Assembly (NCBI GenBank): GCA_027068765.1
Contig: JAMOMC010000172.1
Span: 5,123-69,122 of the forward strand
Length of the DNA: 64,000 nt
Source: Campylobacterales bacterium
GTDB lineage: Bacteria > Campylobacterota > Campylobacteria > Campylobacterales > QNZT01
Direction: 5' to 3'
Made by a program: the position numbers and the translations under genes. Below, one piece after another: positions 47,676 to 63,397 of the stretch; within the stretch, counting starts at the first letter, position 1; each line of letters begins with the position of its first letter. A model generated the notes under the pieces. That model saw only the letters and a program-made list of their open reading frames with translations, ran no database searches and was not told the DNA's origin.

Positions 47676-50645
47676 TTGCAAGCAACCATATTCGAATACT
47701 TAAAATCCAATCCAAACATAGAAGTTTTAATCATAAAAGATGACAAAGAGGCACAAATAGCTTCTCATTGTGCCTCTTTTTTAGGTTATAAGAGTTTTGT
47801 TTTGCCAGATTTTCGTGCATCTTATGGAGATGATCTTCGCTCATATAAAGAGGAGTTGTTTGAGATAAATATCTCTCTAAGTGCCTATTTTGAGACAAAA
47901 AAGTCTAAAAAGATTCTTATATCTCCTTTTAGGACTTTAGCACATTCACTTCCCAAAAAGTCTCTTTTTCAAAATTTCAATATTGAGTTTGGGCAGAGTT
48001 TAAATCTTTTAGAGTTTAAAGACAAGCTTCTTTACTGGGGGTATAGTTTTGTTGATATTGTGGAGGAAAAAGGAGAGGTTTCATTTCGAGGTGATATTAT
48101 CGATATATTTCCTATCTCATTTTCAAATCCTATTCGTATCTCACTTTTTGATGATGAGATTGAGAGTATTAGAGAGTTTTCTTATTTGAGTCAAAAAAGT
48201 AATAAAGAGGAATTAGAAACTATTAAAATCTCTCCTGCACTCTTTGGGCTTTGTAAAGAGGAGTATGAGCTTCTAGAATCAAGAGTGAGTGAGCTTAAAA
48301 GTGATAGTTTTGTGCAAGATATAAACTCTCTTGGGTTTTGGTGTTTGGAGGAGTTAGCGGAGAATTATCTAAAAAAGATGACTCTTATCTCTGTTTCAAA
48401 TATAACAAAAGAGGTAGAAGAGTATTTTTCTTTTTCACAAGATGCTAAGAAAAAAGAGCAATTTTTAGAGATACCTATTATAAATGAGCCTAAAATATAT
48501 AAAGATATAGAGGTTGCTTCATTAGATGCACTAATAGAGTATCATAAAGATAAAAAGATAACCATAATTGCTAAAAATGAAGGCTTGGCAAAACAGTCAG
48601 TTATCAAAAGTGATGCTAAAATATCTTATCAATATAGTGAGTTAATAATAAACCTTTTAAGTAGTGAAGAGCTTATCATATCTCTAAACAAACCTGAGAA
48701 AAAAAATCGAAAAAATCGAAGTAAAATTGTACTTGATGATCTTAAAGTTGGAGATTATGTTGTTCATGAAAATTACGGTATCGGTCTTTTTAAAGGTCTT
48801 ACAAATACCAAGGTTTTAGGTGTTGTGAGGGATTTTGTTGAGATTTCTTACCAAGGAGATGATAGGCTTTTAATCCCTGTTGAAAATTTAACTCTCATAG
48901 ATAGATATATATCTGATGGTGGTGGTATGGCTATAGTTGATAAGCTTGGAAAAAGTAGCTTTATCAAGATGAAAGCCAAAGCAAAAATAAAACTTTTTGA
49001 GATTGCTAAAGAGATTATCGAAATAGCAGCAAATAGAGAGCTTATTAATGGAGCTAAAATTAGCTCAAATGATGATGAGTTAGAAGTATTTCAAGCAGAT
49101 GCAGGGTTTGTTTATACTCAGTGTCAAGAGAAGAGTATATCTGAGATATTTGAAGATTTGGCAAGTGCTAAGGTTATGGATAGACTCCTTAGTGGAGATG
49201 TTGGGTTTGGAAAAACTGAGGTTGCTATGAATGCAATTTTTGCGAGTGTAAAGAGTGGTTTTCAAGCTGCATTTTTAGCTCCAACTACTCTTCTTTGTTC
49301 TCAACACTTAAAAAGTTTAAAAGAGAGGTTTTCAAAGTATGGTATTTCAGTTGTAAAGCTTGATCGTTTCACAAGCACAAAAGAGAAAAATGAGATTTTA
49401 AAAGGTCTTAAAAGTGGAAGTATCGATGTTTGTGTAGGAACTCACTCTCTTTTTGGAGTAGAGTTTAATAATCTTGCATTTTTAGTTTTAGATGAAGAGC
49501 ATAAGTTTGGAGTAAAACAAAAAGAGAAGTTAAAAGCCCTAAAACAAAACCTCCACATACTCTCAATGAGCGCCACCCCAATACCAAGAAGTTTAAACAT
49601 GGCTCTCTCATCTATAAAACAGTATTCGCAACTTCAAACCCCACCAGATAAAAGAGAAGATGTGAGGACTTTTGTAAAAGAGTATAATGAGAAGCTTTTA
49701 AAAGAGATATCTCTTCGTGAGATTAGAAGAGGAGGGCAGATTTTTTATGTACACAATAGAATTTCAAGCATAGAGCAAAAGAGAAAAGAGCTCCAAGAGA
49801 TATTGCCTGAAGCAAAAATTCTTGTGCTTCACTCTAAGATTTCAGCAGCTGTTACAGAAAAAGAGATAATGGCATTTGAGAAAAAAGAGTATGATATTTT
49901 AATCTCTACAACTATCATAGAATCAGGCATCCACATACCAAATGTAAATACAATTATAGTTGAAAATGCTGATAGATTTGGAATGGCAGATCTTCATCAG
50001 CTTCGTGGACGAGTAGGTAGAGGGAGCAGGGTTGGGTATTGCTACTTTTTAGTAAAAAATAAAGATGAGATTTCAGATAGTTCAAAAAAAAGATTAATCG
50101 CACTAGAGTCAAACTCATTTTTAGGAAGTGGGGCGGTATTAGCTTATCATGATTTAGAGATTAGAGGTGGTGGAAATTTGATAGGAGAAGCACAAAGTGG
50201 TCATATTAAAAATATCGGATATTCACTCTATCTTAAAATGTTAGAAGATGCACTAAGTACACTCTTAAATGAGCAAAAAGTAGAGAAAAAAGAGGTAGAG
50301 ATAAAGCTTGCTGTTAGTGCATATCTAAGTAGTGATTCAGTTGGAGAGGATCGCATAAGATTGGAACTGTATCGTCGCCTTAGCAAATGTGAGAGTGTAA
50401 ATGAAGTTTATGAGATAGAGGAGGAGATGATTGACCGTTTTGGTAAGTTAGATCTTATGACAAAAAGTTTTTTAGAGATAATAGTGATAAAAATTTTAGC
50501 TTCACAAAAGGGGATAAAACTCATATCTAGTTATCAGCAAAACATTACAATTGTTAAAGATGATGAGACAAAAGAGTATCTGAAATCTCCAAGCAAAGAT
50601 GATGATGATATTATCAATACTACTTTGGGGTTTTTGAGGAGGTAA
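47676..50645 (+). CDS. mfd: Transcription-repair coupling factor
   Basis: CarD/RID-like 'GDYVVHENYGIG', Walker A 'GDVGFGKTEVAM', 'VLDEEHKFG', 'LHQLRGRVGR' and a TRCF C-terminal domain. Confidence 0.9.
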   Translation: MQATIFEYLKSNPNIEVLIIKDDKEAQIASHCASFLGYKSFVLPDFRASYGDDLRSYKEELFEINISLSAYFETKKSKKILISPFRTLAHSLPKKSLFQNFNIEFGQSLNLLEFKDKLLYWGYSFVDIVEEKGEVSFRGDIIDIFPISFSNPIRISLFDDEIESIREFSYLSQKSNKEELETIKISPALFGLCKEEYELLESRVSELKSDSFVQDINSLGFWCLEELAENYLKKMTLISVSNITKEVEEYFSFSQDAKKKEQFLEIPIINEPKIYKDIEVASLDALIEYHKDKKITIIAKNEGLAKQSVIKSDAKISYQYSELIINLLSSEELIISLNKPEKKNRKNRSKIVLDDLKVGDYVVHENYGIGLFKGLTNTKVLGVVRDFVEISYQGDDRLLIPVENLTLIDRYISDGGGMAIVDKLGKSSFIKMKAKAKIKLFEIAKEIIEIAANRELINGAKISSNDDELEVFQADAGFVYTQCQEKSISEIFEDLASAKVMDRLLSGDVGFGKTEVAMNAIFASVKSGFQAAFLAPTTLLCSQHLKSLKERFSKYGISVVKLDRFTSTKEKNEILKGLKSGSIDVCVGTHSLFGVEFNNLAFLVLDEEHKFGVKQKEKLKALKQNLHILSMSATPIPRSLNMALSSIKQYSQLQTPPDKREDVRTFVKEYNEKLLKEISLREIRRGGQIFYVHNRISSIEQKRKELQEILPEAKILVLHSKISAAVTEKEIMAFEKKEYDILISTTIIESGIHIPNVNTIIVENADRFGMADLHQLRGRVGRGSRVGYCYFLVKNKDEISDSSKKRLIALESNSFLGSGAVLAYHDLEIRGGGNLIGEAQSGHIKNIGYSLYLKMLEDALSTLLNEQKVEKKEVEIKLAVSAYLSSDSVGEDRIRLELYRRLSKCESVNEVYEIEEEMIDRFGKLDLMTKSFLEIIVIKILASQKGIKLISSYQQNITIVKDDETKEYLKSPSKDDDDIINTTLGFLRR

Positions 50646-50895
50646 TATATGTGTCTGATAAGAAGTCACTTAATTTGATGTTGGTGTAAACCAATAGAGT
50701 ATTTTGTTACTTTCTTTCTTCTTATAAGTAATCATTCACAAATTTTATTTAAAATTATAACATTAAAAAATTTGATTTTTTTGATTTTCTTATATTGCTA
50801 TCGAATTTAGCTTATAAACAATATAAACTTGGAAAAACTATTTAACTTTGCAAATAATTGTGATAAAATATTTCATAGATATGCAAGGGAGAAAT

Positions 50896-52551
50896 ATGAC
50901 AAATACAGAAGTTCTACGGTTTATTATCAGTGGATTAGAAAATAGCCCTGATATTATTTGGAAAGGGGATAAGGAGCTTTTTGAGTTGATTTTTGATCCG
51001 ATTCCATATGGGAATGATATTGAAAATAGACAAAAAGAGGCAAAACAATTTATCTTCGATATATTTCAAAATGTTGGCAAGTTTGATAAAGCAAAATTTA
51101 ATAAACTTGTAAAAAATATAATCTCTGGAGGAAGTGAGGAGAGTTGTAGAAAAAAAATAGTAGCCTTTCTTCAAGAAGAGATAACACGACTAGAAATCAT
51201 AACAGATGTAGATATAGAAAAACTTGTTGAAGCACTTCCTTGTAAAGGTGATTTAGATAAAGGGCAAAAAGAGTATATCTATGATATTTTTCAATATGTT
51301 GAAAAGTTTAATAAAACAAAATTTGATCAACTTTCAAAATCTATAACTTGCGGAAAAGATGAAAAGATAGATAAAGAAGTAGTAATAACCTTTTTGCGAG
51401 AAGAGGTAACACGACTAAAAATTATAACAGATGTAGATATAGAAAAACTTGTTGAGTTTATTCCTTGTAAAGATAGTAAAGAAAAAAATTATAAGACATC
51501 ATTTTCAGGTTGGAAAAAAGAGGGAACTATTTCTAGTATAGGTTGTAAAAGAATTAAAAAAGCTCTACAGAAAAATTTTTATTTTGAAAGTGACTTATGG
51601 TCTAAAGGAGATACTTTTATAAAACAAAGATTACAAGAAGGTATAAATAAATTTATAATTGGTCCTCTTCCATTAGATCCTATAACCCCTTCTTTTACAC
51701 AAGAAGAGTTGGATGACTTATTAAATATTAGAGGTATGAAGTTACAAGAAATTAAACAATATCTAGAAGAACACCCTATTTTATCACAAAATTTTGTAGA
51801 AAAATTGATTTATATTTTATATGATAAAGAATACTATGATCTTTTAGTAGATGAAGTATTTAATAAATTTTATAAAGATGATATAGGGATTAAAAAAATA
51901 AAAGCACATGTTTGGGGTAGTGATAAAATAGGTAAATATTTAGAAGCATATTATTTACTTTCTACTATACCTTCAGACGATGATGATGAAATAGTAAATA
52001 TGAAAACTGCGGCAACCTCAAATATGAGACGACATCAGTTAAATGATGCAAAAACAGACAACAATCAAAAAAAAGAGATTATTGAAACGCTAATCTCTGA
52101 TTACAAAGAAACTTTTGAGTCTAAAGATACTTACAACTACTATCCTGGTATAAATTTAGCCTATATGTCAGTGATATCTATAGCTCTTTTTGGCAACGAG
52201 ATAAAACTAGATGATAGTATTTCTACTATTTATAATAAATCAAAAAAATCTATCGATATAGACAAAAAAAATCTTGATACTTCAAAACAATACTATGCAA
52301 ACATAACTACTATCGAGTTTATGCTACTTAACAACATTGAAAGTTTTACTGTTGAATTAGAACAATTTTTGGACTCTAAAGAGCAAACAATAATTATTAA
52401 AGGGCTACTTCAAACAAGGCGACAGATGCAGTTTTTTATCGATACTCTTGCAAGCTCTGGGATTAGTAAAAATCCTATCATCTTAAATATGCAAAAATCA
52501 ATAAAGATAATTGATGACTTTATAGATGGTTTAAAAGAATTTGAAATGTAA
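50896..52551 (+). CDS. Unknown protein A: duplicated novel N-terminal module + DUF4071/TRAF-binding-TPR-like C-terminal domain (tentative)
   Basis: ATG 50896 is preceded by AGGGAG and aligns with the paralog start 'MTN(T/S)EV'. C-terminal motifs 'YNYYPGINLAYM' and 'KQYYANITTIEFMLL'. I recognise no enzymatic motif. Confidence 0.7.
   Translation: MTNTEVLRFIISGLENSPDIIWKGDKELFELIFDPIPYGNDIENRQKEAKQFIFDIFQNVGKFDKAKFNKLVKNIISGGSEESCRKKIVAFLQEEITRLEIITDVDIEKLVEALPCKGDLDKGQKEYIYDIFQYVEKFNKTKFDQLSKSITCGKDEKIDKEVVITFLREEVTRLKIITDVDIEKLVEFIPCKDSKEKNYKTSFSGWKKEGTISSIGCKRIKKALQKNFYFESDLWSKGDTFIKQRLQEGINKFIIGPLPLDPITPSFTQEELDDLLNIRGMKLQEIKQYLEEHPILSQNFVEKLIYILYDKEYYDLLVDEVFNKFYKDDIGIKKIKAHVWGSDKIGKYLEAYYLLSTIPSDDDDEIVNMKTAATSNMRRHQLNDAKTDNNQKKEIIETLISDYKETFESKDTYNYYPGINLAYMSVISIALFGNEIKLDDSISTIYNKSKKSIDIDKKNLDTSKQYYANITTIEFMLLNNIESFTVELEQFLDSKEQTIIIKGLLQTRRQMQFFIDTLASSGISKNPIILNMQKSIKIIDDFIDGLKEFEM
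51031..51471 (+). repeat. Intragenic tandem duplication (~70-aa module x2) inside gene A
   Basis: Unit 1 (51031-51246) 'QKEAKQFIFDIFQNVGKFDKAKFNKL...TRLEIITDVDIEKLVEALPCK'. Unit 2 (51265-51471) 'QKEYIYDIFQYVEKFNKTKFDQL...TRLKIITDVDIEKLVEFIPCK'. The stretch 'ataacagatgtagatatagaaaaacttgttga' is identical in both. Confidence 0.85.
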
Positions 52552-52615
52552 ATCCAAATAATCCAATATAAAAGTGTTATGATAATATCACACAGATAAG
52601 AAATGAGGATAAAAT

Positions 52616-53265
52616 ATGACAAATTCAGAAGTTGTGCAGTTTATTATCAGTAAGTTAGAAAATAGCTCTATCACTTGGAAAGGTGACAAAGAGCTTTTTG
52701 AATTGATTTTTGCTCCAATTCCATATGGGAATGAAATTGAGAAGAGACAAAAAGAGATAAAACGATCTATTTTTGATATCTTTCAAGATATTGATAAGTT
52801 TGATAAAATAAAATTTAATAAACTTGTAAGAGATATAAGCTGTGGAGATCAAAAAAGACATAAAAAACAGATTATAACCTTTTTAGAAGAAGAGATAATA
52901 AGGCTCAAAATCACAACAGATGCAGATATAAAAAAACTTGTTTCCGTTATTCCTTGCAAAAATTCTAAAGAGAAAAACTATAGAACTCAATTTGCACATT
53001 GGAAAAAAAAAGGAGCTACTGTTACTATACATGATAGGAGTATCAAAAATGCTTTGCAGAAAAATTTTTATTTTGAAAGTGACTTATGGTCTATGGAAGA
53101 TGCAGCTATAAAACAAATATTGCAAAAGGGTATAGACACTAGAATTCTATTACTGAATTAGAACTGTTTTTGAAATTTAAGGAGAGGATAATAATTTGCA
53201 TAGAGCTAACAAAACGACAGATGAAGTTTTTTATCGATACTCTTGCAAACTCTGGAATAGGTTGA
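52616..53265 (+). pseudogene. Tandem, internally deleted and frameshifted copy (A') of gene A
   Basis: ORF 52616-53161 parallels the A N-terminus with a single repeat unit, including an identical run 'cagaaaaatttttattttgaaagtgacttatggtcta'. 53158-53265, in a different frame, reads 'LELFLKFKERIIICIELTKRQMKFFIDTLANSGIG*', matching A's C-terminal 'ELEQFLDSKEQTIIIKGLLQTRRQMQFFIDTLASSGIS'. Confidence 0.7.
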
Positions 53266-53303
53266 AATATAAAAATGTTAATATCAATACGCAAGGGTAG
53301 TAA

Positions 53304-54371
53304 ATGACAAATAATTTCTTTGAAAAACATTCTATTTTAGGGTTACAACCCGAAATCATAAAAAGTGATAAAAGCTATAGTATAGTTCTCTATGGTAACT
53401 CCCCTCTGGCTATAAAGATATTTTATCAACTTGCTATCTTATCAAATCTTCCAAATGAAAACATACTAAATTTATACCTTGTTGATTTGAAAGCTAAGAA
53501 TTTTTATAAAAAATTAAAAAAGCTTTTTAGTGGTATCAAAAAAATAACTCATCTTAATATCATAACTATAGAGTTAGATAGTAAAAATCCCAAATTTTAT
53601 ACCAACAAAATATGGCAAAAAGAGAACTTAACAAATATCATTATTGCAACACAAAATGAAAAGAAAAATTTAAAAATCAAAACAGAGCTCAAAAACTACA
53701 TATCTAGCAAAAAAACTAAAATTTTATTACCTATAGCAAGTCGAACCAATATCAACTCTAAACAAATAGCAAAATTGATTAACTACCTATATCAAGAGAC
53801 AAAATACAACCCAAATCTACTTTTTACACAAAAAGATAAAGATAAAGCAAAAACAATATGGTCAAATAAAATATTATTAAGTGATAAAAAATCAACTAAG
53901 ATGCAAAGTATTCATATAGATACAAAACTATTAACTCTTGGTTTAAAAAAACAAAAAAGCACAAAAACCCCCGAAGAACTTTTAAAAATAAATAAAGAGA
54001 TATTTGATAAAAAATTAGGGTTTAGAGAGATAGATGATCAAAAATTACAAGAGTACTCTCTGAAATTTCAAGATACTAAAAATAACTTTACAGCAATTTA
54101 CTTTCCAAAAGAGTTTAAAAGTCTATTTGAAAAGCTGATAAGAAGTGAACATAACAGATGGAACACTTATCATTATCTAAATGGTTGGAAATATAATAAA
54201 AATAAAAACAAACAACTAAAAGAACACAACTGCTTGATGCCTTTGGAAAAATTTGATAAAGAGTATCTTAAAACTACAGTGATATTTGATATATACTCTA
54301 TAGTTTATATACCAAATTTATTGGCTAGTGTTGGGGTGGAATTAGTTGATATAATGGAAAAAACACTCTAA
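53304..54371 (+). CDS. Unknown protein B: N-terminal Rossmann-like region + C-terminal RyR-like domain (tentative)
   Basis: 'SEHNRWNTYHYLNGWKYNKNKNKQLKEHNCLMPLEKFDKEYLKTTVIFDIYSIVYIPNLLASVG' fits the RyR-domain pattern (H..W......GW.Y......K.H..L.P...L......D...V..IP..L...G). RBS 'AAGGGTAG' lies upstream. Confidence 0.65.
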   Translation: MTNNFFEKHSILGLQPEIIKSDKSYSIVLYGNSPLAIKIFYQLAILSNLPNENILNLYLVDLKAKNFYKKLKKLFSGIKKITHLNIITIELDSKNPKFYTNKIWQKENLTNIIIATQNEKKNLKIKTELKNYISSKKTKILLPIASRTNINSKQIAKLINYLYQETKYNPNLLFTQKDKDKAKTIWSNKILLSDKKSTKMQSIHIDTKLLTLGLKKQKSTKTPEELLKINKEIFDKKLGFREIDDQKLQEYSLKFQDTKNNFTAIYFPKEFKSLFEKLIRSEHNRWNTYHYLNGWKYNKNKNKQLKEHNCLMPLEKFDKEYLKTTVIFDIYSIVYIPNLLASVGVELVDIMEKTL

Positions 54372-54386
54372 AAAAGGTAATAATTT

Positions 54387-54944
54387 ATGGCATACTTTCC
54401 CGCATTTATAAAACTTGACAATTTAAAAATTTTGATTATCGGTGGCGGTAATATAGCTAGTGAAAAACTTGGGCATATGTTGGATTTTACTAAGGATATA
54501 ACAGTAATATCTCCAAAACTATCAGCTACTTCAAGAGAGTTAATAAAAAAGAATTCGCTTTTTTTTATAAATAAAATTTATGAGAAAGATGATATTGATG
54601 GTTTTGCTATAGTTATCGTGGCAGTTGATGATGTGAGTGTTCAAAAAAGTGTTTATGAAGAGGCAAAAAGTAAAAAGATACTTTGCAATAGTGTTGATAG
54701 TGTGGATTATTGTGATTTTATATTTCCTTCATATATAAAAGATGGAGACTTGACAATTGCTATCTCAACCTCAGGTTCATCTCCAGCTTTGGCTAAACAT
54801 CTGCGTAAATTTTTGCAAAAGGTTATGCCAAAGTCTATAGATGATTTTTTAAAACAGATGAAAAGATATAGAGAGAGTATGCCAAAAGGAAAAGAGAGGA
54901 TGGAATTTTTGGATAAAAAGGCTAAAGATTTTTTTAAAACTTAA
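54387..54944 (+). CDS. Precorrin-2 dehydrogenase / sirohydrochlorin ferrochelatase (SirC/CysG N-terminal-like)
   Basis: 'FPAFIKLDN.KILIIGGGNIASEK', 'DFIFPS' and 'LTIAISTSGSSPALAK'. Confidence 0.8.
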   Translation: MAYFPAFIKLDNLKILIIGGGNIASEKLGHMLDFTKDITVISPKLSATSRELIKKNSLFFINKIYEKDDIDGFAIVIVAVDDVSVQKSVYEEAKSKKILCNSVDSVDYCDFIFPSYIKDGDLTIAISTSGSSPALAKHLRKFLQKVMPKSIDDFLKQMKRYRESMPKGKERMEFLDKKAKDFFKT

Positions 54945-55024
54945 TTTAAAGGCAACTCCAATAATCAATTAATTATTTAATTATGCTAATATATAATATT
55001 AATTTAATTATTTAAGGGTATAAG

Positions 55025-56368
55025 TTGAAAAATAGAAAAACTATAATCACTTACGGAACATATGATATGCTTCATATTGGTCATCTAAATATACTAAAAC
55101 GAGCAAAAGCTTTAGGAGATTACTTGATAGTTGGAGTTACGGATGAAAATTATGACCGTTCTCGTGGAAAGTTAAATGTTTCGCAAAGTACAAAAAAGAG
55201 AGTAAATGCTATAAAAGAGTTGGATTTTGTTGATGAAGTTATCGTTGAGACTCATAAAAAGCAAAAAGCTATTGATATGATAAAGTACAATGTAGATATA
55301 TTTGCAATTGGGGATGATTGGGTTGGAGCATTTGACTATCTTAATAAATATACACATGTTGAGTATCTTCCTCGCACTGAGGGCATCTCTAGCACAAAGC
55401 TTAGAAATGAGACTTTTAAGCCTATAAAATTAGGAATTTCAGGACTTGGAAAAGAGACAGGATCTTTTATAAATGAAGCAGAGTTTGTCTCAAATATATC
55501 AATTACTAGAATTTATGATGAAGATTTATCTTCAATAAAAGAGTTTACAAAAACTTCAAATATAAAATATGGTCACGATAACTATGATGAGTTTTTAGAT
55601 ACCTCAATCACTGCTGTTTATATAAACTCATCTGTAAAAGAGCACTATACTCAGATAAAAATGGCTCTAGAAGCTGATAAACATGTACTTTGTGAAAATC
55701 CTTTGGCACTTGAAAAAGATGAGTTAAAAGAACTTTTAGCTTTAGCTAAAATAAAGAAAAAAATTCTTCTTTCAGCTTTAAGAACAGCATTTTTACCTGC
55801 ATTTAATCAACTTTTAAAAAAGATAAACAAAGGTGTAATTGGTGATATAAAAGTAGTTCGTGCAAATCGTTCTACACTTTATAAACAAAGAGATTATCCT
55901 GATGAGTTTATGAAACAAGGTGCTACAAATCTACTTTCTAGTTATCCATCTTTGTTGACTCATAAAGTTTTAGGAAAGAGTAAAGATATAAAATTTTTTG
56001 ATCAATTAGAAGAGGATTATGATATAAGTAACACTATAATTACAACTCATAAAAATGGCACTATTGGTATATCTACAATTGCAACAGGAGTAAAATTGGA
56101 AGAGAGTGCTATGATTGCAGGAACAAAAGGTTATATCTATATTCCTTCTCCATGGTGGCTTATGAAAAGTTTCTCACTTGGTTTTGAAGATGAGAGTAAA
56201 AGTGAGAAGTATGAGTATGAGTTTGAGGGATGTGGGCTTCGTTATATGATTGCAGAGTTTAGCTCTTTGATACAAAGAGGAAAGATAAAATCTAAAAAAT
56301 TAAGTGGAGCTGATATGATGAAGATAAATAGAGTAGTATTAAAATATAATGAAAAAGGAGAGAAGTAG
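55025..56368 (+). CDS. Fusion: TagD-like cytidylyltransferase + Gfo/Idh/MocA oxidoreductase
   Basis: N-terminal 'TYGTYDMLHIGHLNIL' (HxGH) and 'RTEGISSTKLR'. The C-terminal half has 'IKLGISGLGK' and 'HVLCENPLAL' (EKP-like motif). TTG start. Confidence 0.75.
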   Translation: MKNRKTIITYGTYDMLHIGHLNILKRAKALGDYLIVGVTDENYDRSRGKLNVSQSTKKRVNAIKELDFVDEVIVETHKKQKAIDMIKYNVDIFAIGDDWVGAFDYLNKYTHVEYLPRTEGISSTKLRNETFKPIKLGISGLGKETGSFINEAEFVSNISITRIYDEDLSSIKEFTKTSNIKYGHDNYDEFLDTSITAVYINSSVKEHYTQIKMALEADKHVLCENPLALEKDELKELLALAKIKKKILLSALRTAFLPAFNQLLKKINKGVIGDIKVVRANRSTLYKQRDYPDEFMKQGATNLLSSYPSLLTHKVLGKSKDIKFFDQLEEDYDISNTIITTHKNGTIGISTIATGVKLEESAMIAGTKGYIYIPSPWWLMKSFSLGFEDESKSEKYEYEFEGCGLRYMIAEFSSLIQRGKIKSKKLSGADMMKINRVVLKYNEKGEK

Positions 56369-57442
56369 ATGATATATGAGGATTATTATATATTTACTCC
56401 AGGACCTGTTAAGATGTCTAAAGAGATTTTAGAGATAGGGGCGAAGCAGACTCCGTATTTTAGAAATAGTGAGTTTTCTGATGTTACTTTTTATTGTGAA
56501 AATTATCTTTTAGAGATGCTGAATGCTCCAAAAAATAGTAGAGTTATATTTTTGACCGCATCTGGGACTGCTGGTATGGAGTCTGTGGTTATGAATTTAC
56601 TAGATGTAGATGATAATGCACTTGTTGTTAATGGCGGAGGTTTTGGTGCTAGATTTGTGGATATTTGTAATTTACACGATATTAATCATTTTAATTTAAA
56701 AGTTAAAGATACAAATCTTAGTGATATTCAAAAGATTGCTCCACAAGAAAAATTTAATTCACTTATAGTTAATGCTCATGAGACGAGTGTTGGACATATT
56801 TATGATTTAGAGGCTATTGGTAAATATTGTAAAAAAAATAATCTTTTATATATTGTAGATGCAATTAGTATGTTTGTAACAGACTCTTTAGATATGCAAA
56901 AAGATAGTATAGATGCAGTAATTGTTAGTAGTCAAAAAGCGTTGGCTCTTCCTCCTGGGCTTACTATGGTTGTGTTATCTCCTAAAGCATTAGAAAAAGT
57001 AAAAGATGTAAAAAGTTTATATTTTAATTTTAAAGATTATCTTAGAGATGGACAAAGAGGTCAAACACCTTATACTCCAGCAGTTACCATAATGCTTCAG
57101 CTTGAAGCTAGGTTAAAACAGATTCAAAAAGATGGAGGAGTTGAAAAAAGTATCAAAAAAGCTAAAAATTTAGCTGAATATTTTCGTCAAAAAATAAAGC
57201 CTTTACCACTTGTAGCCTTTTCCAAGTTTATGCCAAATGCGATGACGACCCTTGCACCAACAGATGGTAAAAGTGCTTTTAAAATAGTAGAAGATTTGGA
57301 GAAAAATTATAAGGTTATGGTCTGTCCAAATGGAGGAGAGTTAAAAGATAAAATTTTTAGAATCTCACATATGGGTGATATGGATGAGGCTTATATAGAT
57401 ATTTTAATAAATGCACTTTTTGACTATTATGAAAACAATTGA
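56369..57442 (+). CDS. Class V (AGXT/PhnW-like) PLP aminotransferase
   Basis: 'IFTPGPVKMS', 'DAISMF' and the PLP-lysine context 'VSSQKALALPPGL'. The start abuts the previous stop. Confidence 0.8.
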   Translation: MIYEDYYIFTPGPVKMSKEILEIGAKQTPYFRNSEFSDVTFYCENYLLEMLNAPKNSRVIFLTASGTAGMESVVMNLLDVDDNALVVNGGGFGARFVDICNLHDINHFNLKVKDTNLSDIQKIAPQEKFNSLIVNAHETSVGHIYDLEAIGKYCKKNNLLYIVDAISMFVTDSLDMQKDSIDAVIVSSQKALALPPGLTMVVLSPKALEKVKDVKSLYFNFKDYLRDGQRGQTPYTPAVTIMLQLEARLKQIQKDGGVEKSIKKAKNLAEYFRQKIKPLPLVAFSKFMPNAMTTLAPTDGKSAFKIVEDLEKNYKVMVCPNGGELKDKIFRISHMGDMDEAYIDILINALFDYYENN

Positions 57443-58187
57443 TGATAAAACTATAAAAAAAGCTCAACTTATCATGCTTGATATGCTGATAGAATTTGAC
57501 AAAATTTGTCAAAAGCATGAGCTTAAATACTGGTTAGATAGTGGTACACTTTTAGGGGCCATCAGACATAATGGTTTTATACCTTGGGATGATGATGTAG
57601 ATATATCTATGCCTGTGAGTGATTATAAAAAGTTTTGTGAAGTTGCAAGTGGTGAGTTAAAAAAAAGTATGTTTTTACAACACACAAAAACAGATAGTAC
57701 ATTTCCTTTTGACTATATGAAGATAAGAGATACTAGAGCTACGATTGTAGAGTTTCATGAAGAGGGTAGGGATATAAAGTACAATCAAGGTCTTTTTTTA
57801 GATATTTTCCCAATGTTAGTTATAAAAGATAGTAAGTTTCATAATTTTATTTATAGATACTCTTTTATGGTTATCAGATTTTTTTCTGCAAAAAAGTTTG
57901 AAAATAGACACATAAGAGGAGTGTTTGTAAATTTACTTCATAAGATGCATCTTGGTTTTTTAAAAAAAGATACAAAGATTATCTATGGCGGTGAGATGCC
58001 AGATGTAGCTGGAAGTTTCTCTTATGATGAGATTTTTCCACTGAAAAGAATAGAGTTTGAAGGTTTAGAGTTTTTAGCTCCAAATAGATGTGAAGATTAT
58101 CTTTTAGAGCTTTATGGTGAGGATTATATGCAATTACCCCCTTTAGAAAAAAGGAGTGTGCATGCAGTAGAGATCAAGATAACCTAA
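57429..58187 (+). CDS. LicD-family phosphotransferase
   Basis: 'YWLDSGTLLGAIRHNGFIPWDDDVDISM' is the LicD signature. An alternative ATG at 57411 is possible. Confidence 0.8.
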   Translation: MKTIDDKTIKKAQLIMLDMLIEFDKICQKHELKYWLDSGTLLGAIRHNGFIPWDDDVDISMPVSDYKKFCEVASGELKKSMFLQHTKTDSTFPFDYMKIRDTRATIVEFHEEGRDIKYNQGLFLDIFPMLVIKDSKFHNFIYRYSFMVIRFFSAKKFENRHIRGVFVNLLHKMHLGFLKKDTKIIYGGEMPDVAGSFSYDEIFPLKRIEFEGLEFLAPNRCEDYLLELYGEDYMQLPPLEKRSVHAVEIKIT

Positions 58188-58771
58188 TAGTTTTGGTTAT
58201 CGCCTCGTTTTACTTTTTTGCTAAATTCTGTCTGTCCACCAGCTGAGAGAAGTTTTGCTTGACCTATCCAATCTTCTTTTTTTACTCTCCCTTTAAATGC
58301 AAGGTAGTTTTCAATCCAATCAATATTGTCATTTGACCAACCAGCAATTTGTTGAAAATTAAAGATACCAAGTCCTTGTAGTGTATCTTCTATCTTTAAA
58401 CCAATTCCACTAATCTCTTTTAAATCATCAGCTTCTCCATTTATTGGTGCTTGAAGTGAGCTTGGTCTAACTCCTATCTCTTGACCAATTGCACTGTGTC
58501 CAGTATCATTATCTGTAAAAACTGAACTGCCAACGGCAGCAACTGAACTTGTAGATATGTCTTTAGTGATACCTCCTAAGTTGTTTTCATCTAGCGATAT
58601 ATCCTCTTTCATAAAATCTTGTGAGTAGTCATTTAATTTATCTTTTTTGTCATACTCATCACCATCGCATTTACCAATCTTACCCAGTAAATAACCGATA
58701 ATTCCACCTATCAAAGCCGCAACTAACAGACATAAAATAATCTGCATCGCTAATTCCATTATGTTCTCCAT
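58184..58771 (-). CDS. Membrane-anchored protein with C-terminal helix-hairpin-helix (COG3743-like) domain
   Basis: N-terminal TM 'IILCLLVAALIGGIIGYLLG'. C-terminal 'DDLKEISGIGLKIEDTLQGLGIFNFQQIAGW...YLAFKGRVKKEDWIGQAKLL'. Confidence 0.55.
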   Translation of the reverse strand: MENIMELAMQIILCLLVAALIGGIIGYLLGKIGKCDGDEYDKKDKLNDYSQDFMKEDISLDENNLGGITKDISTSSVAAVGSSVFTDNDTGHSAIGQEIGVRPSSLQAPINGEADDLKEISGIGLKIEDTLQGLGIFNFQQIAGWSNDNIDWIENYLAFKGRVKKEDWIGQAKLLSAGGQTEFSKKVKRGDNQNY

Positions 58772-58775
58772 CTTT

Positions 58776-59792
58776 TTAATCTCCTATAATTTTAAATTCT
58801 ACTCTTCTGTTTATCTGTTTATTTTCTAAAGAGTTGTTTTTTACTAGTGGTTGACTTTCTCCATAACCTATAGCTTTTAGTCTATAACCTTTTATCCCTT
58901 TTGAAATAAGGTATTTTCTTATGGCGTCAGCTCTTTTTTGACTCAGTTTTTTATTGTTTTGTTCAGTTCCATCTGAATCAGTATGACCGCCAATTTCAAC
59001 TTTGACCTCTTTATGTTCATTTAATATATCATAAACTTTGTCGATGCTATTTTTGCCTTTAGGGGTTAGAGCATCTTTTGCATATACAAATTCAACTTTT
59101 GATAATTTAAATAGATTATCAAGCTTCTCTTGTATCTCTTTTTTGCTTACTTTTTTGATAATAGGCTCTTTTTGAACAATCTCTTTTGGCTCAGAAGGTT
59201 TTGGAGGAATTTTTTCAATATTTTTTATCTCCTGTTTAACTTCAGATTTTTTTACTTTAATTTTTTCTACAATTAGTTGATTATCAATCTTTATGTTTCC
59301 CGCACCTAGTAGTTTGTTATGAATGTCTTGTTTGACTTGTTGATCATCAACCCTACCACTCATTGTCATTTCTCCTGCTTTGTACTCTAAAAAACCATTT
59401 TTAAATTTTGAAAATTCACTATTTAGAGTTGGTAAAAGTTTTAAAATTTTTATATTTTGAGCATTCTTATCTATGATAATCATACCCTCTTTTACATCTT
59501 CAGAGATTTTTTTGTATTCAGACTTAAGTGTTTCTAAATCCTCTTTTGAGTTAAAAATTCCAGAAATTTTGATACTATCTTTATCTTTTAAGACTTTGAT
59601 ATTTATATCTTTTCCCTTTTGTGATTGCTTCAGCACCGTTTTAGCACCTTCGCTTTGAGTAGTTGTTGGTGTTATTGCAGGTTTAGTAACTGCTTTTGTA
59701 TCATTTAACTCTTGTAGTTTATTCCAAACACAAAAGATGATAAAAAATAGCAAAAGCCAAACCAAAAGCCATAACCATTGACGTCGCGACAT
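58776..59792 (-). CDS. OmpA/MotB-family peptidoglycan-binding protein with N-terminal TM anchor
   Basis: TM 'WLWLLVWLLLFFIIF'. C-terminal 'GHTDSDGTEQNNKKLSQKRADAIRKYL...NRRVEF'. Confidence 0.8.
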   Translation of the reverse strand: MSRRQWLWLLVWLLLFFIIFCVWNKLQELNDTKAVTKPAITPTTTQSEGAKTVLKQSQKGKDINIKVLKDKDSIKISGIFNSKEDLETLKSEYKKISEDVKEGMIIIDKNAQNIKILKLLPTLNSEFSKFKNGFLEYKAGEMTMSGRVDDQQVKQDIHNKLLGAGNIKIDNQLIVEKIKVKKSEVKQEIKNIEKIPPKPSEPKEIVQKEPIIKKVSKKEIQEKLDNLFKLSKVEFVYAKDALTPKGKNSIDKVYDILNEHKEVKVEIGGHTDSDGTEQNNKKLSQKRADAIRKYLISKGIKGYRLKAIGYGESQPLVKNNSLENKQINRRVEFKIIGD

Positions 59793-59844
59793 TTAAATTC
59801 CTTTTTTTCTTTTATTGTAGCAGTTAAAATCTAAAAAACAAAAA

Positions 59845-62145
59845 TTATTTTACTTTTTTTAGGAAAAAAGTGAAAAAATCTGATTGAAACTCACTGTTTC
59901 CTATCTTTTTGTACTGTATAGATGCACCTTCAAAGTTTCTCTCTTGTTGATATAAAAGTCCAAGAGCATATCTACTCTCAAAATTAGATGGATCAGTTAG
60001 TTTTGAAAGCTCCAAAAGTGCAACAGCATTTGCATAATGTTTCGCACCAATGGCAGAAACTGATGCTAAAAACAGAGTATGAGTATCTTCTTGCCCATAA
60101 TTATCAATTAGTTCATTATATATTTGATATGATTTTTCAAAATCTTTATTATATATATTTGCAAATGCTAAAGATTGTAGGTATGGTACACTTTTTACAT
60201 CTTTATATTTTTCTAGCTCCCTTTTTGCTTTATGAGAAATTCCTGCGATACTTAGCATCCTTATATATAATTCACGAGGCAATGCACCCCCATAAAGAAG
60301 TGGATTTAAATCTAAATCATCTTGATTTAAAACTCTTTGAATTGCTCTAGCATAAGCTTTTATATCATTTTTATTGTGTGAGGAGTCAAGATATAGTATA
60401 TTTGAGACGATATCGTTTTTCAATCTACTCTTTAGCCAGTAGGCACTTTTGGAGTAGATGCTTATATCGTTTTGAATGTTAGAGATAATTAGATTTATAG
60501 CATGTGCAAAGATTTGTGAGTTGGTTTCTATATACTCTAGATTTAATACAGATGTATTTAGGGCTAAGTTTATGAGAGCTAAGGCCTCTTTATTATCACT
60601 TTTCTCTTTTAATTTTTCAAGCTCTTTTGCTGGTATCTCTCTAGCCGTCAATTTTGCACAAAAAGCTTTAAATGTTAATGCTTTGTAGTTGTTTAAATCA
60701 AGAGAATAACTTTTTGAGAAGTATTTATAAGCATTTTGAAAATCAAAGATTTGAGCATATGATAGAGCTAAATTATAGTATAAAGCTGAGTGAGAGGGAT
60801 ATAGTTTTGTTGTATTTTTTAGTATCTTATTTGCTTCATATATTTTGTTTTCATTTATTTTTTTTAATGCTTTTGTAATTTCAATATTTATATTTGAGAT
60901 GGTTTTTGAATCTTTTAGATATAAAAGAGCTGGTGTAATATCTCTTATTTCCACTTTTTTTGCACCTTTTTGAATATAGTTTATAGTCTCACTCGCATCA
61001 AAGAGTTGGTAAGGAGCATAATAAAAAAGTAGAGAGTATCTATATTTATTATCTAAAAAAAGTCTTCTTTTAAATTCATTTTGAGCTAAAATTGGATCAA
61101 AAAGAGAGTTTTTAAGCTCTACTTTTATAGGGTATGTCTCTTCAGCTTTTTGTTTAAAGGAATCGTAACTAGCTTTTAAAAGCTCTCCTGAATCTTCTAA
61201 AAGCCCTAATTTGTTTTTTACTAATGCAAGAGCTACATTAGATTTTAAAGGCTCTATCTTACTTGATACTGCATTTTGCAAAGAGTCTTGTGCAAGTTTA
61301 TACTCTGAAGCTCTTGCTTGTAAAAGTCCAATAGCCAAATAATCTTTTGCATAATTTATTTTTTTTAGATGATTTATAGCTTGTGTATCATTTTTGCTTG
61401 TTGCTAAAATTTTACTAGCTATAAAATTTTGTTCATCTTTATAAAAACCTGATGTAGGATTTAAGATAGCTATTAAACTCTCAGTTGGTTCAAGTTTATA
61501 ATAGTTTATAAGAGCTATATAGTATGAATAAAGAGGGGAGCTTTGCACAAAAGGTAGATACTTTTGACTAAGAGCTAAATAGTGAAAAAATGCATCTTTA
61601 TCTTCTAAATATAAAGAGCAAATTGCTGAGTTTAAAGCACTTGGAGTTTTTAGTTTATCGCTCATCATTGAAGAGTCAAAAGATTCTATTGCCTCTTTAT
61701 ATTTTTTTAGTTTTAATTTGGCTACACCGATATTGTAAAAAGAGATGGCTTTATTGTAGTGAGAGAGGTGATTATAGATTGCTAAAGCCTCTTTTATCTC
61801 TCCTTGTTTATATAGTCTGTCTGCTTTTTGGATTAATTTTTGGGCTTTGCTTAACTCATTTTTAGATAACTCTTTTTCTTTTATAGTTTTTATAATTTTA
61901 GTCTCATTTACTTCATGGTTTTGTTTTAACGAAGTTTTTTTCTTAATATAAAAAATTGTAAAAACTACTCCCATTATGAGTATTAGAATTAAAAATGCAA
62001 TTATGAGGTATTTTATAAGTGTATCAGTTGTTATACTCTTTTTTTTTGTCTCATCCTCTTCTATCTCAACTTTTGAACTCTTTTTTTGTTTCGATGTTTC
62101 CTCTAAATCATCATCATCGATGGTTTTAAACTCTTCATCAGCCAT
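59845..62145 (-). CDS. TM-anchored TPR-repeat protein (positional analog of Campylobacter PflB, tentative)
   Basis: Acidic N-terminus, one TM helix ('LIIAFLILILIMGVVFTIFYI'), then many TPR-like A/Y/L-patterned repeats. It sits immediately downstream of serS, as I recall for C. jejuni Cj0390. Confidence 0.6.
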   Translation of the reverse strand: MADEEFKTIDDDDLEETSKQKKSSKVEIEEDETKKKSITTDTLIKYLIIAFLILILIMGVVFTIFYIKKKTSLKQNHEVNETKIIKTIKEKELSKNELSKAQKLIQKADRLYKQGEIKEALAIYNHLSHYNKAISFYNIGVAKLKLKKYKEAIESFDSSMMSDKLKTPSALNSAICSLYLEDKDAFFHYLALSQKYLPFVQSSPLYSYYIALINYYKLEPTESLIAILNPTSGFYKDEQNFIASKILATSKNDTQAINHLKKINYAKDYLAIGLLQARASEYKLAQDSLQNAVSSKIEPLKSNVALALVKNKLGLLEDSGELLKASYDSFKQKAEETYPIKVELKNSLFDPILAQNEFKRRLFLDNKYRYSLLFYYAPYQLFDASETINYIQKGAKKVEIRDITPALLYLKDSKTISNINIEITKALKKINENKIYEANKILKNTTKLYPSHSALYYNLALSYAQIFDFQNAYKYFSKSYSLDLNNYKALTFKAFCAKLTAREIPAKELEKLKEKSDNKEALALINLALNTSVLNLEYIETNSQIFAHAINLIISNIQNDISIYSKSAYWLKSRLKNDIVSNILYLDSSHNKNDIKAYARAIQRVLNQDDLDLNPLLYGGALPRELYIRMLSIAGISHKAKRELEKYKDVKSVPYLQSLAFANIYNKDFEKSYQIYNELIDNYGQEDTHTLFLASVSAIGAKHYANAVALLELSKLTDPSNFESRYALGLLYQQERNFEGASIQYKKIGNSEFQSDFFTFFLKKVK

Positions 62146-62149
62146 ATTT

Positions 62150-63397
62150 TTATCTTATATAAGCTTCAAGGGCTTTTGGTATCAAAACTCTGCCATCACT
62201 TTGTTGATAATTTTCCATTATAGCAATTATAGTTCTCCCAATAGCAAGTGAAGAGCCATTTAGTGTATGGACTAATCTATTTTTTTTACCATCTTTATAT
62301 CTTATTTTTGCACGACGAGCTTGAAAATCTTTTGTATTTGATATAGAGCTTATTTCTCTATATCTATTTTGACCAGGTAGCCACACTTCAATATCTACAG
62401 TTTTAGCCGCTCCAAACCCTAAATCTCCCCCACATAAAAGCACAAGTCTATGATGAAGATTTAAAGAGCTTAAGAGATCACTTGCAGTTTTAACCATCAA
62501 ATTAAAGATTTCTTCGCTATCTGCTGGTTTAGAGATGCAAACAAGCTCAACTTTTCCAAATTGATGTTGTCTTATCATCCCTCTTGTATCTTTTCCTGCA
62601 CTTCCTGCCTCTTTTCTAAAACAGGCTGTATGAGATGTTAACTTTATAGGAAGGTTTTCCTCTTTTAATATCTCATCTCTGTAAAGGTTTGTAACAGGTA
62701 CTTCCGCAGTTGGTATAAGATATAAACTCTCACCTTCAATCTTAAAGAGGTCATCTTCAAATTTTGGAAGTTGCCCAGTTGCTGTTAGTGACTCTTTGTT
62801 TGTTATAAAAGGTACTGACACTTCACAAAAACCTCTTTGAGTATTAAAATCTAACATATAATTTACTAAAGCTCTCTCTAATTTAGCACCATCACCTTTA
62901 AGTACACTAAAACGACTTTTTGAGAGTTTAACACCTCTCTCAAAATCTATCCATTGCTGTTTTTTATCTAGATCCCAATGCTCCTTTGGCTCAAAATCAA
63001 ATACGGGCTTATTGAGGATTTTTTTAATCTCTATATTATCATCTTCACTCTCTCCACTTGGTACACTCTCATCTGGTATATTTGGAATAACAAGGGCAAT
63101 TTCAAAAAGTCTCTCTTCAAGCTCTCTTGTTTTTAGAAGAGTTTTTGTAATTTTATCTTTGTTGTTATCTAATTCTTTTTTTAATTCATCTGTATCTTTG
63201 CCCTCTTTTTTATAGATAGGAAAGAGTTTACTTTTTGAGTTTTGTTCAGCTTGAAGTGTCTCTAAAACGGCTTTTTCTTCTTTTAGTTTTAGTGATAACT
63301 CTTTTAGTGAATTAAGAAGTGTTTTGTCTATATTTTTCTTTTTTAATTTATCACTTATCTCTTCAAAGTTATTTGCTAACTCTTTTAAATCTAACAT
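62150..63397 (-). CDS. serS: Seryl-tRNA synthetase
   Basis: N-terminal coiled-coil arm. Class II motifs '[25 protein letters not shown]' and '[18 protein letters not shown]'. Confidence 0.95.

Follow-up and report, generated by a model that had tools for sequence, protein, structure and literature searches.

A window of 64,000 nucleotides (nt) from a Campylobacterales bacterium (assembly GCA_027068765.1, contig JAMOMC010000172.1), which is the whole stretch of DNA analysed here, carries a gene, designated gene A, that is followed after a 64-nt spacer by a truncated copy of itself, designated A′. Both reside in an island (50646-54386) that contains only A, A′ and a gene for a protein with a RyR domain. 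The features on which the following argument draws are listed below, with positions numbered from the first letter of the window.

50896-52551, + strand: gene A, 551 amino acids (aa); open reading frame (ORF) and start set by alignment with 12 homologues
51034-51247 and 51259-51472, + strand: in-frame internal tandem duplication in gene A, with a 225-bp period
52552-52615, + strand: promoter-bearing spacer copied with gene A, recognised by its homology with the spacer of locus L005
52616-53161, + strand: ORF of A′, 181 aa, ending in TAG at 53159-53161
53136-53153, + strand: junction of deletion 1, placed by local alignments on both sides and by offset arithmetic
53146-53265, + strand: non-coding remnant of the C-terminal helices of the sensor domain, matching A codons 484-526
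53268/53269, + strand: junction of deletion 2 (feature 53266-53303), followed by the rest of the spacer up to the RyR gene
53304-54371, + strand: RyR-domain partner gene, 355 aa, Pfam PF02026

Structure of the truncated copy

Comparison of 52600-53300 with 50848-52560 by pairwise blastn produced three blocks of homology. The first pairs 52612-52960 with 50892-51246 of gene A (79.2% identity, E 3e-86), the second pairs 52759-53134 with 51266-51645 (75.5%, E 3e-73), and the third pairs 53154-53258 with 52353-52463 (76.6%, E 5e-20); the overlap of the two 5′ blocks results from an in-frame tandem duplication inside gene A. These alignments bear out the original prediction, which had read the region from its letters as a second, tandem copy of gene A that has undergone an internal deletion and a frameshift, and they dispose of the alternative that the similarity is confined to AT-rich, low-complexity segments. 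Homology between the copies begins 4 nt upstream of the ATG, and residues 1-174 of A′ are homologous to residues 1-251 of A minus one repeat unit, which corresponds to a complete amino-terminal module (hereafter the N-module) with a single insert. Over this module the two copies are 64-66% identical in protein and 77% identical in DNA. The common start and the 37-nt identical run that had been noticed earlier are both present: the sequence ATGACAAAT begins A, A′ and the RyR-domain gene alike, and the 37-nt run, at 51568 in A and 53057 in A′, codes for the most conserved motif of the family, LQKNFYFESDLW.

A′ is offset from A by 1489 nt on the left of 53136-53153 and by 801 nt on its right, so that deletion 1 amounts to a net loss of 688 nt. 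The missing segment corresponds to approximately 51650-52339 of A (codons 252-482), comprising the linker and most of the sensor domain, and its removal shifts the reading frame. The A′ protein ends with seven codons from the deletion junction (TRILLLN) followed by the TAG, and the remnant beyond lies in a different frame, that of 53131, as had been proposed for a 181-codon ORF stopping at 53159-53161. The putative GIN-motif region is likewise absent from A′, since HYYPGINLAY (A codons 413-423) falls inside the deleted part. The earlier assignment of the remnant to the last ~120 nt of A must, however, be corrected: 53141-53268 is 77% identical, with shifted frame, to A 52340-52473, a segment lying 78-210 nt before A's stop, and tblastn of A residues 487-526 against 53155-53268 gave 62.5% identity (E 1e-6).

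Within the remnant, 53146-53262 translates as SITELELFLKFKERIIICIELTKRQMKFFIDTLANSGIG in the frame of 53131 and then runs into a TGA at 53263-53265, where A has AAA; a 6-nt deletion relative to gene A is also present. Deletion 2 removed 94 nt, equivalent to A 52474-52567 and flanked by AAT microhomology, and took with it the last 25 codons of A and the stop (78 nt) together with the first 16 nt of the spacer, including the whole upstream promoter motif described below. What is left of the spacer retains a -10-like TAATAT and the ribosome-binding site (RBS) of the RyR gene. A′ thus bears two marks of a pseudogene, homology to an intact paralogue and disabling lesions (the 688-nt and 94-nt deletions and the TGA). 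The decay that had been suspected is real for its 3′ part, as seen in the TGA and the 6-nt and 94-nt deletions, and with a frameshifting deletion, further deletions and a stop codon the sensor half of A′ is therefore a dead remnant.

The exact repeats of up to 37 nt between A and A′ might prompt the suspicion that a repeat was collapsed or mis-joined during assembly and that the second copy is really intact. The arrangement could be compared with L011, an independent metagenome contig from ENA, and with L022, a contig in Logan that derives from a different run. Over 12,664 nt, L011 and positions 50498-63161 of the window are 99.87% identical, with 16 mismatches and no gap, and L011 codes for the same 551-, 181- and 355-aa proteins. 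L022 breaks exactly at a 24-nt run common to A and A′, as a repeat-induced artefact might; nevertheless its first 79 nt match 53225-53303 and span both the TGA and the deletion-2 junction. Because the same lesions occur in two other assemblies, one of them 16 single-nucleotide polymorphisms (SNPs) away and free of indels, they do not derive from misassembly, and at 77% identity the copies are too divergent to collapse. The possibility of an assembly or sequence error at the junction, raised in the original prediction as what would undo it, has therefore been checked, and we regard its probability as practically negligible.

Duplicated unit, age and promoter

The 64-nt spacer after A (52552-52615) is homologous to the spacer that separates the A homologue from the RyR gene in L005, a locus in a Sulfurimonas metagenome-assembled genome (MAG), and also to the remainder of the spacer between A′ and the RyR gene. 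What was duplicated is gene A together with the spacer on its 3′ side. The junctions fall in the 9-nt ATGACAAAT with which both A and the RyR gene begin, and the simplest history would be an unequal exchange between two such sites. The comparison with related loci that had been suggested earlier was carried out: those relatives with enough flanking sequence contain a single full-length copy, followed immediately by the RyR gene in L005 and L014; the single-copy loci L006 and L015 have other neighbours.

Over the N-module, the synonymous divergence (dS) between A and A′ is 0.53-0.59, and the ratio of nonsynonymous to synonymous differences (pN/pS) is 0.36-0.43. Neighbour-joining trees group A and A′ with a third homologue, P0015 of another strain (L010), without resolving the order of the three, and both sampled strains share every lesion of A′. 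With a dS of ~0.55 the duplication is old, and the description of it as recent does not survive these values, the 77% DNA and 64-66% protein identity, the trichotomy with L010 or the lesions common to both strains. In structural terms, A′ is an old tandem duplication that has undergone loss of the sensor domain and partial decay, which is ordinary gene turnover in kind.

The duplication inside gene A is a separate event, in which the ~75-aa insertion of the N-module was doubled. Its units are 76.5% identical by blastn, and the 225-bp repeat is absent from A′ and from the twelve homologues aligned. The dS between the units is 0.29, which makes the internal duplication younger than that of the gene; their pN/pS is 1.1, and confidence in the structural model of gene A (see below) is low there.

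One other tandem case was observed among the related loci. In L013 (2-694), the 3′ end of one copy is followed by a 197-nt spacer with the promoter motif and by a second copy, whose homology stops at codon 121; GC-richer sequence follows, and the contig ends 60 nt later. In L010 (1596-1826), which derives from the same sample as L011, the homologue stops at codon 273 and gives way abruptly to sequence richer in GC, namely the 3′ end of an opposite-strand gene resembling that for tRNA-guanine transglycosylase. Homology in these two contigs ends 60-230 nt from the contig ends, and the breaks represent either true truncation or rearrangement or a chimeric contig join; for L013 the two are indistinguishable because so little of the contig is left.

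The promoter was found by comparing spacers among related loci. A motif, ATCCAAAnAATCCAA (ATCCAAA[A/T]AATCCAA), is followed in most of its 14 occurrences in these loci by 10-12 nt and a -10-like hexamer, and in most of them an RBS and ATG occur 20-60 nt further on. The only perfect copy in the 64-kb window lies directly before A′, where the spacer contains ATCCAAATAATCCAA (52552-52566), 11 nt, TATGAT (52578-52583) and the RBS GAGGA (52605-52609). In L005 and L014, where the gene is single-copy, this element stands before the RyR gene. The + strand shows no terminator-like site in the stretches that separate A, A′ and the RyR gene. A generic sigma-70 scan, with 25 sites where 24.7 were expected, gave no useful information. 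As judged from these signals, A′ would be expressed as a protein from the leading cistron of an mRNA that also includes the RyR gene.

Motif sites were recorded in L005 (1934), L014 (1402), L015 (2853, and 1276 on the - strand), L013 (151), L007 (6067 on the - strand, 7346 and 9513), L008 (908 and 5965 on the - strand, 953) and L019 (952 on the - strand, 2577). The promoter-like element, often with AGGAGG and an ATG after it, stands before varied genes in Sulfurimonas-type contigs, many of them with signal-peptide-like starts. A degenerate copy with two mismatches lies inverted on the - strand at 50754-50785, in the intergenic region between mfd and gene A that forms the left border of the island, and has no obvious gene after it.

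The gene A family and its partner genes

Close relatives of gene A are few. A word-indexed search of 5.8 billion protein clusters returned only 13 close homologues, and a further search of this kind with a 33-member profile returned the known close homologues and nothing else; an exhaustive profile search (1.84 billion) identified 99 representatives at 50% identity. All organism-labelled hits, at five genome loci, are Campylobacterales MAGs, two of them Sulfurimonas. Many members of ~400 aa have a compact N-domain of ~85 aa, whereas the subfamily of A carries a ~75-aa insertion between 'ELFE.L.P' and 'NYK..F..WKK', of which gene A has two.

The AlphaFold2 (AF2) model of gene A has a mean predicted local distance difference test score (pLDDT) of 80.4, falling to 54-66 in the internal repeat. 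It consists of an all-helical N-module (1-255, the last helix at 239-255), a linker (257-265) with pLDDT <50 and a helical-repeat C-domain (~269-550) that includes HYYPGINLAY. The best match in the PDB is 5ulm, the central regulatory region of ASK1 (Foldseek probability 1.0, E 0.05), while the match to the TPR-S family PF20308 is below threshold (E 0.038, 15 bits against a cut-off of 27.6). Among 33 diverse family members, 21 have a PF20308 match with E no higher than 0.1 (best 3.8e-10), and three of these (P0105, P0107 and P0046) exceed the curated cut-off; a search of PDB sequences with the family alignment profile gave no match. The family is a small Campylobacterales group that combines an all-helical N-module with a C-domain related to TPR-S and to the ASK1 regulatory region.

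A helix-turn-helix (HTH) identity for the N-module was considered and set aside. It had been suggested by the motif pattern and by one sub-threshold HTH_3 hit in P0107 (20.8 bits against 23), which covers the conserved W..G...F.F..W motif, in a region that hhalign ties to the family at 65% probability. Neither A, A′ nor constructs with the 75-aa insertion excised gave a Pfam hit, no HTH was found among PDB matches for the A′ model, and hhalign to an unrelated HTH_3 protein found nothing, leaving this identity as a lead only. A phage origin, or phage mimicry, was rejected as well: no match emerged when A and the RyR protein were compared by tblastn with 50,697 phage records, PHROGs yielded only weak hits to the RyR domain, and BFVD contained no fold match for A′.

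The partner protein has its RyR domain at residues 262-320 (PF02026, 34.5 bits against a cut-off of 27.4). In L005 and L014, an A homologue is immediately followed by an orthologue of its gene (72% and 77% identity, respectively), so that the two genes adjoin in these loci and in the window, though not in L006 or L015. Its first ~260 residues have no recognisable family, and inspection by eye of residues ~285-315 revealed EHNRW (H-x-x-W), with a His 22 positions beyond the Trp. Binding or cleavage of 2′/3′ cyclic ADP-ribose (cADPR) has been shown for phage RyR-domain proteins, with H75, W78, H100 and D117 as ligand residues (2026 preprint, PMC13232231). The partner resembles these phage RyDEP proteins in its PF02026 match and in the spacing of H-x-x-W and His, which is that of H75, W78 and H100; it differs in being encoded by the host, in its 355-aa length with ~260 unassigned N-terminal residues and in having no phage homologue, and its activity is predicted at most.

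The A homologues of a sister clade (L001-L004, L007-L009 and L016-L020) are always preceded by a conserved gene of ~180 aa that overlaps the A-type start and bears the motif GISGHRDL...LADGADR...QYRQVGR...GGT.DIA. Its product has no Pfam hit and no match among PDB sequences, and a SLOG identity suggested by GISGHRDL...GADR was dropped, finding no support in Pfam or in PDB sequences. Neighbours in this clade include a TIR gene, peptidoglycan-binding proteins and toxin-antitoxin islands; the TIR gene is adjacent in one locus, seen in two data sets (L003/L004), and more distant in L002.

These surroundings invite comparison with known systems. Gene A resembles TPR-S proteins, including ThsI, in the HYYPGINxAY signature of its C-domain, and its family includes members that match PF20308 and one sister-clade locus (L003/L004) beside a TIR gene; gene A itself is nevertheless sub-threshold for TPR-S, its all-helical N-module has no known relative, it has no effector domain, A′ is devoid of the entire TPR-S part, and a TIR gene is absent from the window locus. 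ThsI, the effector of type VIII Thoeris, consists of a CMP hydrolase and a TPR domain proposed to perceive cADPR (2025, bioRxiv 10.64898/2025.12.03.692087). Because the island (50646-54386) contains no TIR gene, and Pfam, NCBIfam and PADLOC gave no CMP-hydrolase hit in A, the window locus was not classed as type VIII Thoeris. The likeness to the ASK1 region and to MAP3K_TRAF_bd (PF13281) consists of the best Foldseek match of gene A, over 299 columns of 5ulm, and of one family member that matches PF13281 at E 1e-3; on the other side, the 5ulm match has E 0.05, a TM-score of 0.29/0.39 and 17% identity, and ASK1 is a eukaryotic protein in another context, with kinase and PH domains that gene A lacks. 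Receptors of the RNPP/AimR type also place a small helical N-domain before a helical-repeat sensor, and the sub-threshold HTH_3 hit of P0107 adds to this likeness; yet A, A′ and the insert-excised constructs have no HTH hit and A′ no HTH fold match, the ~75-aa insertion sits where the turn would be, and Rgg3 ranks only 29th (E 1.0) for the sensor domain of gene A.

By homology only, the A/RyR system probably comprises a TPR-S-type sensor and a RyR protein that would bind or cleave ADP-ribose-derived signals, which makes this host locus a plausible candidate for ADP-ribose-signal handling.

Retention or decay of A′

The remaining question is whether the open N-module frame of A′ has been kept by selection or has simply not yet been lost. 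In the gene A model, the end of the A′ ORF coincides with the predicted boundary between N-module and linker, and the AF2 model of A′ is a compact domain (pLDDT 89.1; predicted template modelling score 0.73). All family-invariant residues of the N-module are kept in A′, whose 174 codons of N-module contain neither a stop nor a frameshift. Lineage-specific pN/pS lies at 0.22-0.28 in A′, as against 0.43-0.48 in A and 0.27-0.29 in L010; the loss of constraint over the whole copy that is expected of a pseudogene is thus not seen, since the value for A′ is no higher than those for the intact copies. An ordinary pseudogene formed by tandem duplication would likewise have an intact homologous neighbour, a frameshifting deletion, a stop and further deletions, but A′ differs from it in that its 5′ 546 nt, promoter and RBS are undamaged and its constraint is not relaxed.

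The distribution of lesions points in the same direction. If all of A′ had been neutral from its first lesion onwards, the absence of a stop from 174 codons together with at least one stop in the 39 codons of the remnant would have a maximum likelihood of 0.066, and stop codons alone give a Bayes factor of 4-20 for protection of the N-module. The probability that one or two secondary deletions all miss the 586 nt of promoter and ORF is 0.28 or 0.08, respectively. A pattern with no disabling lesion in these 586 nt, as against a stop and one or two deletions in the ~230-nt remnant, is unlikely if the whole of A′ is neutral.

The most serious competing explanation is that A′ is a plain relic, a redundant duplicate that is being lost sensor half first, whose N-module ORF has stayed open because too little time has passed and whose product is inert. 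Consistent with this, A′ carries multiple disabling lesions, and broken copies are frequent in the family and break at various points (codon 273 in L010, codon 121 in L013 and a poly-A frameshift in L012), the only other tandem case, L013, likewise having a broken second copy. The barely eroded conserved residues of the remnant fit a recent truncation, and if the time elapsed is short (t <=0.03) an open frame of 174 codons is unsurprising (P ~0.5). This explanation must nonetheless accommodate the accumulation of a two-step TGA and one or two further deletions in the remnant alone (0.066 x 0.28 in the neutral best case), an A′ lineage that is no faster than the intact copies at nonsynonymous sites and an ORF that ends precisely at a domain boundary.

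Several further observations weigh against retention by selection. The likelihood argument assumes uniform and independent lesions and draws on very few events, namely one stop and one or two deletions. The remnant still has conserved residues of the family (T.RQM.FFIDT), so the deletions may be recent relative to the duplication, and the low pN/pS of A′ could date from a time when it was full length. The two strains are identical at every A′ site, and no population signal is consequently available for A′. The A′ model has no match in the PDB or among the viral folds of BFVD, and the N-module has no Pfam hit. There is no conserved stand-alone N-module gene, and no N-only lineage, among the 99 family representatives; the four short ORFs of the family (A′, 181 aa; P0063, 121 aa; P0092, 193 aa; P0015, 273 aa) look like broken full-length genes with breaks at different positions.

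P0092 derives from L012, where a run of A8 at ~640-660, in place of the A7 implied by the full-length relative P0022, splits a family member exactly after the N-module and leaves a 193-aa N-only ORF; the frameshift may reflect slipped-strand switching or a true pseudogene, or may be an error of sequencing.

The suggestion that A′ is a truncated isoform containing only the N-module thus gains some support. It agrees with the end of the ORF at a domain boundary, the promoter and RBS, the pN/pS of 0.22-0.28 and the lesion pattern, but not with the breaks of the other truncated copies at other positions or with the absence of a stand-alone N-module gene elsewhere.

Selection on A′ might also operate without regard to its protein. 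Translation of A′ could shield the RyR transcript from Rho-type polarity, given that deletion 2 removed RyR's own upstream motif and expression of RyR would in this event depend on transcription through A′. The motif that is present before A′ and deleted before the RyR gene, the lack of a terminator between the two and an ORF that remains intact despite the lesions downstream are all in keeping with such a role. Protection would, however, be incomplete, since ~140 nt of untranslated remnant lie between the A′ stop and the RyR start; the -10-like TAATAT and gene A's own promoter may suffice for RyR; and the low pN/pS and the conservation of invariant residues would be left unexplained. We assign this purely transcriptional explanation a small probability.

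Gene A is a hot spot for SNPs between the window and L011, with 9 of the 16 differences in 13% of the compared length (binomial P 5e-5). Four of these are nonsynonymous and four fall within 25 bp at 51540-51564, and A′ has none. Such clustering might suggest that A′ serves as a silent donor cassette, a reservoir for gene conversion that diversifies gene A. The SNP alleles of the second strain do not follow A′, however: the base of A′ is found in the other strain at only 2 of the 5 A SNPs that can be aligned to A′, whereas 4 of the 8 that can be aligned to L010 match L010 instead. Moreover, A′ offers one N-module variant and no conversion tract is visible, so that conversion from A′ into A was rejected and a donor role appears highly improbable.

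On this evidence, we consider the chances that A′ has been retained by selection to be about even, the small share of the anti-polarity explanation included, and we place the plain relic somewhat short of an even chance.

The history of the locus began with tandem duplication of gene A and its 3′ spacer, with end points in two ATGACAAAT sites. The upstream copy, A, remained full length and later doubled the ~75-aa insertion of its N-module; the downstream copy, A′, lost 688 nt with a shift of frame and then 6 nt and 94 nt, and gained a TGA in its remnant. What remained is a 181-codon N-module ORF behind a duplicate of the promoter and RBS from which relatives with a single copy express the RyR gene. 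With the removal by deletion 2 of the upstream promoter motif belonging to the RyR gene's own copy, a new transcription unit may have been formed, consisting of promoter, N-module and RyR gene, with A′ as its presumed first cistron and with a frame that selection would probably have kept. Lacking a sensor, A′ could compete for, or pre-occupy, the partners or sites of A's N-module and so damp or tune the A/RyR system; its minimum role would be that of a translated leader that keeps RyR transcription free of polarity. The fuller claim, that A′ is a selected, sensor-less N-module protein in a rewired operon that sets the threshold of an undescribed host sensor/RyR system for ADP-ribose-derived signals, is doubtful enough that we advance it only tentatively.

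Truncated paralogues or isoforms of immune receptors, such as Arabidopsis NRG1C and MyD88s, which act as negative regulators, offer a possible analogy for A′. Like them, A′ would present one domain of a multi-domain receptor beside the full-length form; unlike them, it is bacterial, arose by deletion and carries a decaying remnant.

A′ documents well how a gene in an accessory locus with rapid turnover is duplicated, loses a domain and partly decays, and the mechanism can be traced base by base, through a 9-nt microhomology at the duplication, a microhomology at the 94-nt deletion and the capture of a promoter. Its wider interest lies in a tiny family, divergent from the TPR-S of Pfam and confined to Campylobacterales among its organism-assigned members, that pairs with a RyR gene or with a ~180-aa gene (in one locus also with TIR); recent work has connected TPR-S-type domains and RyR domains alike with immune signalling through cyclic ADP-ribose. 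Should A′ prove functional, a receptor gene would have given rise by deletion to a sensor-less regulator, which by analogy may represent the bacterial equivalent of those shortened immune-receptor paralogues that hold their full-length relatives in check.

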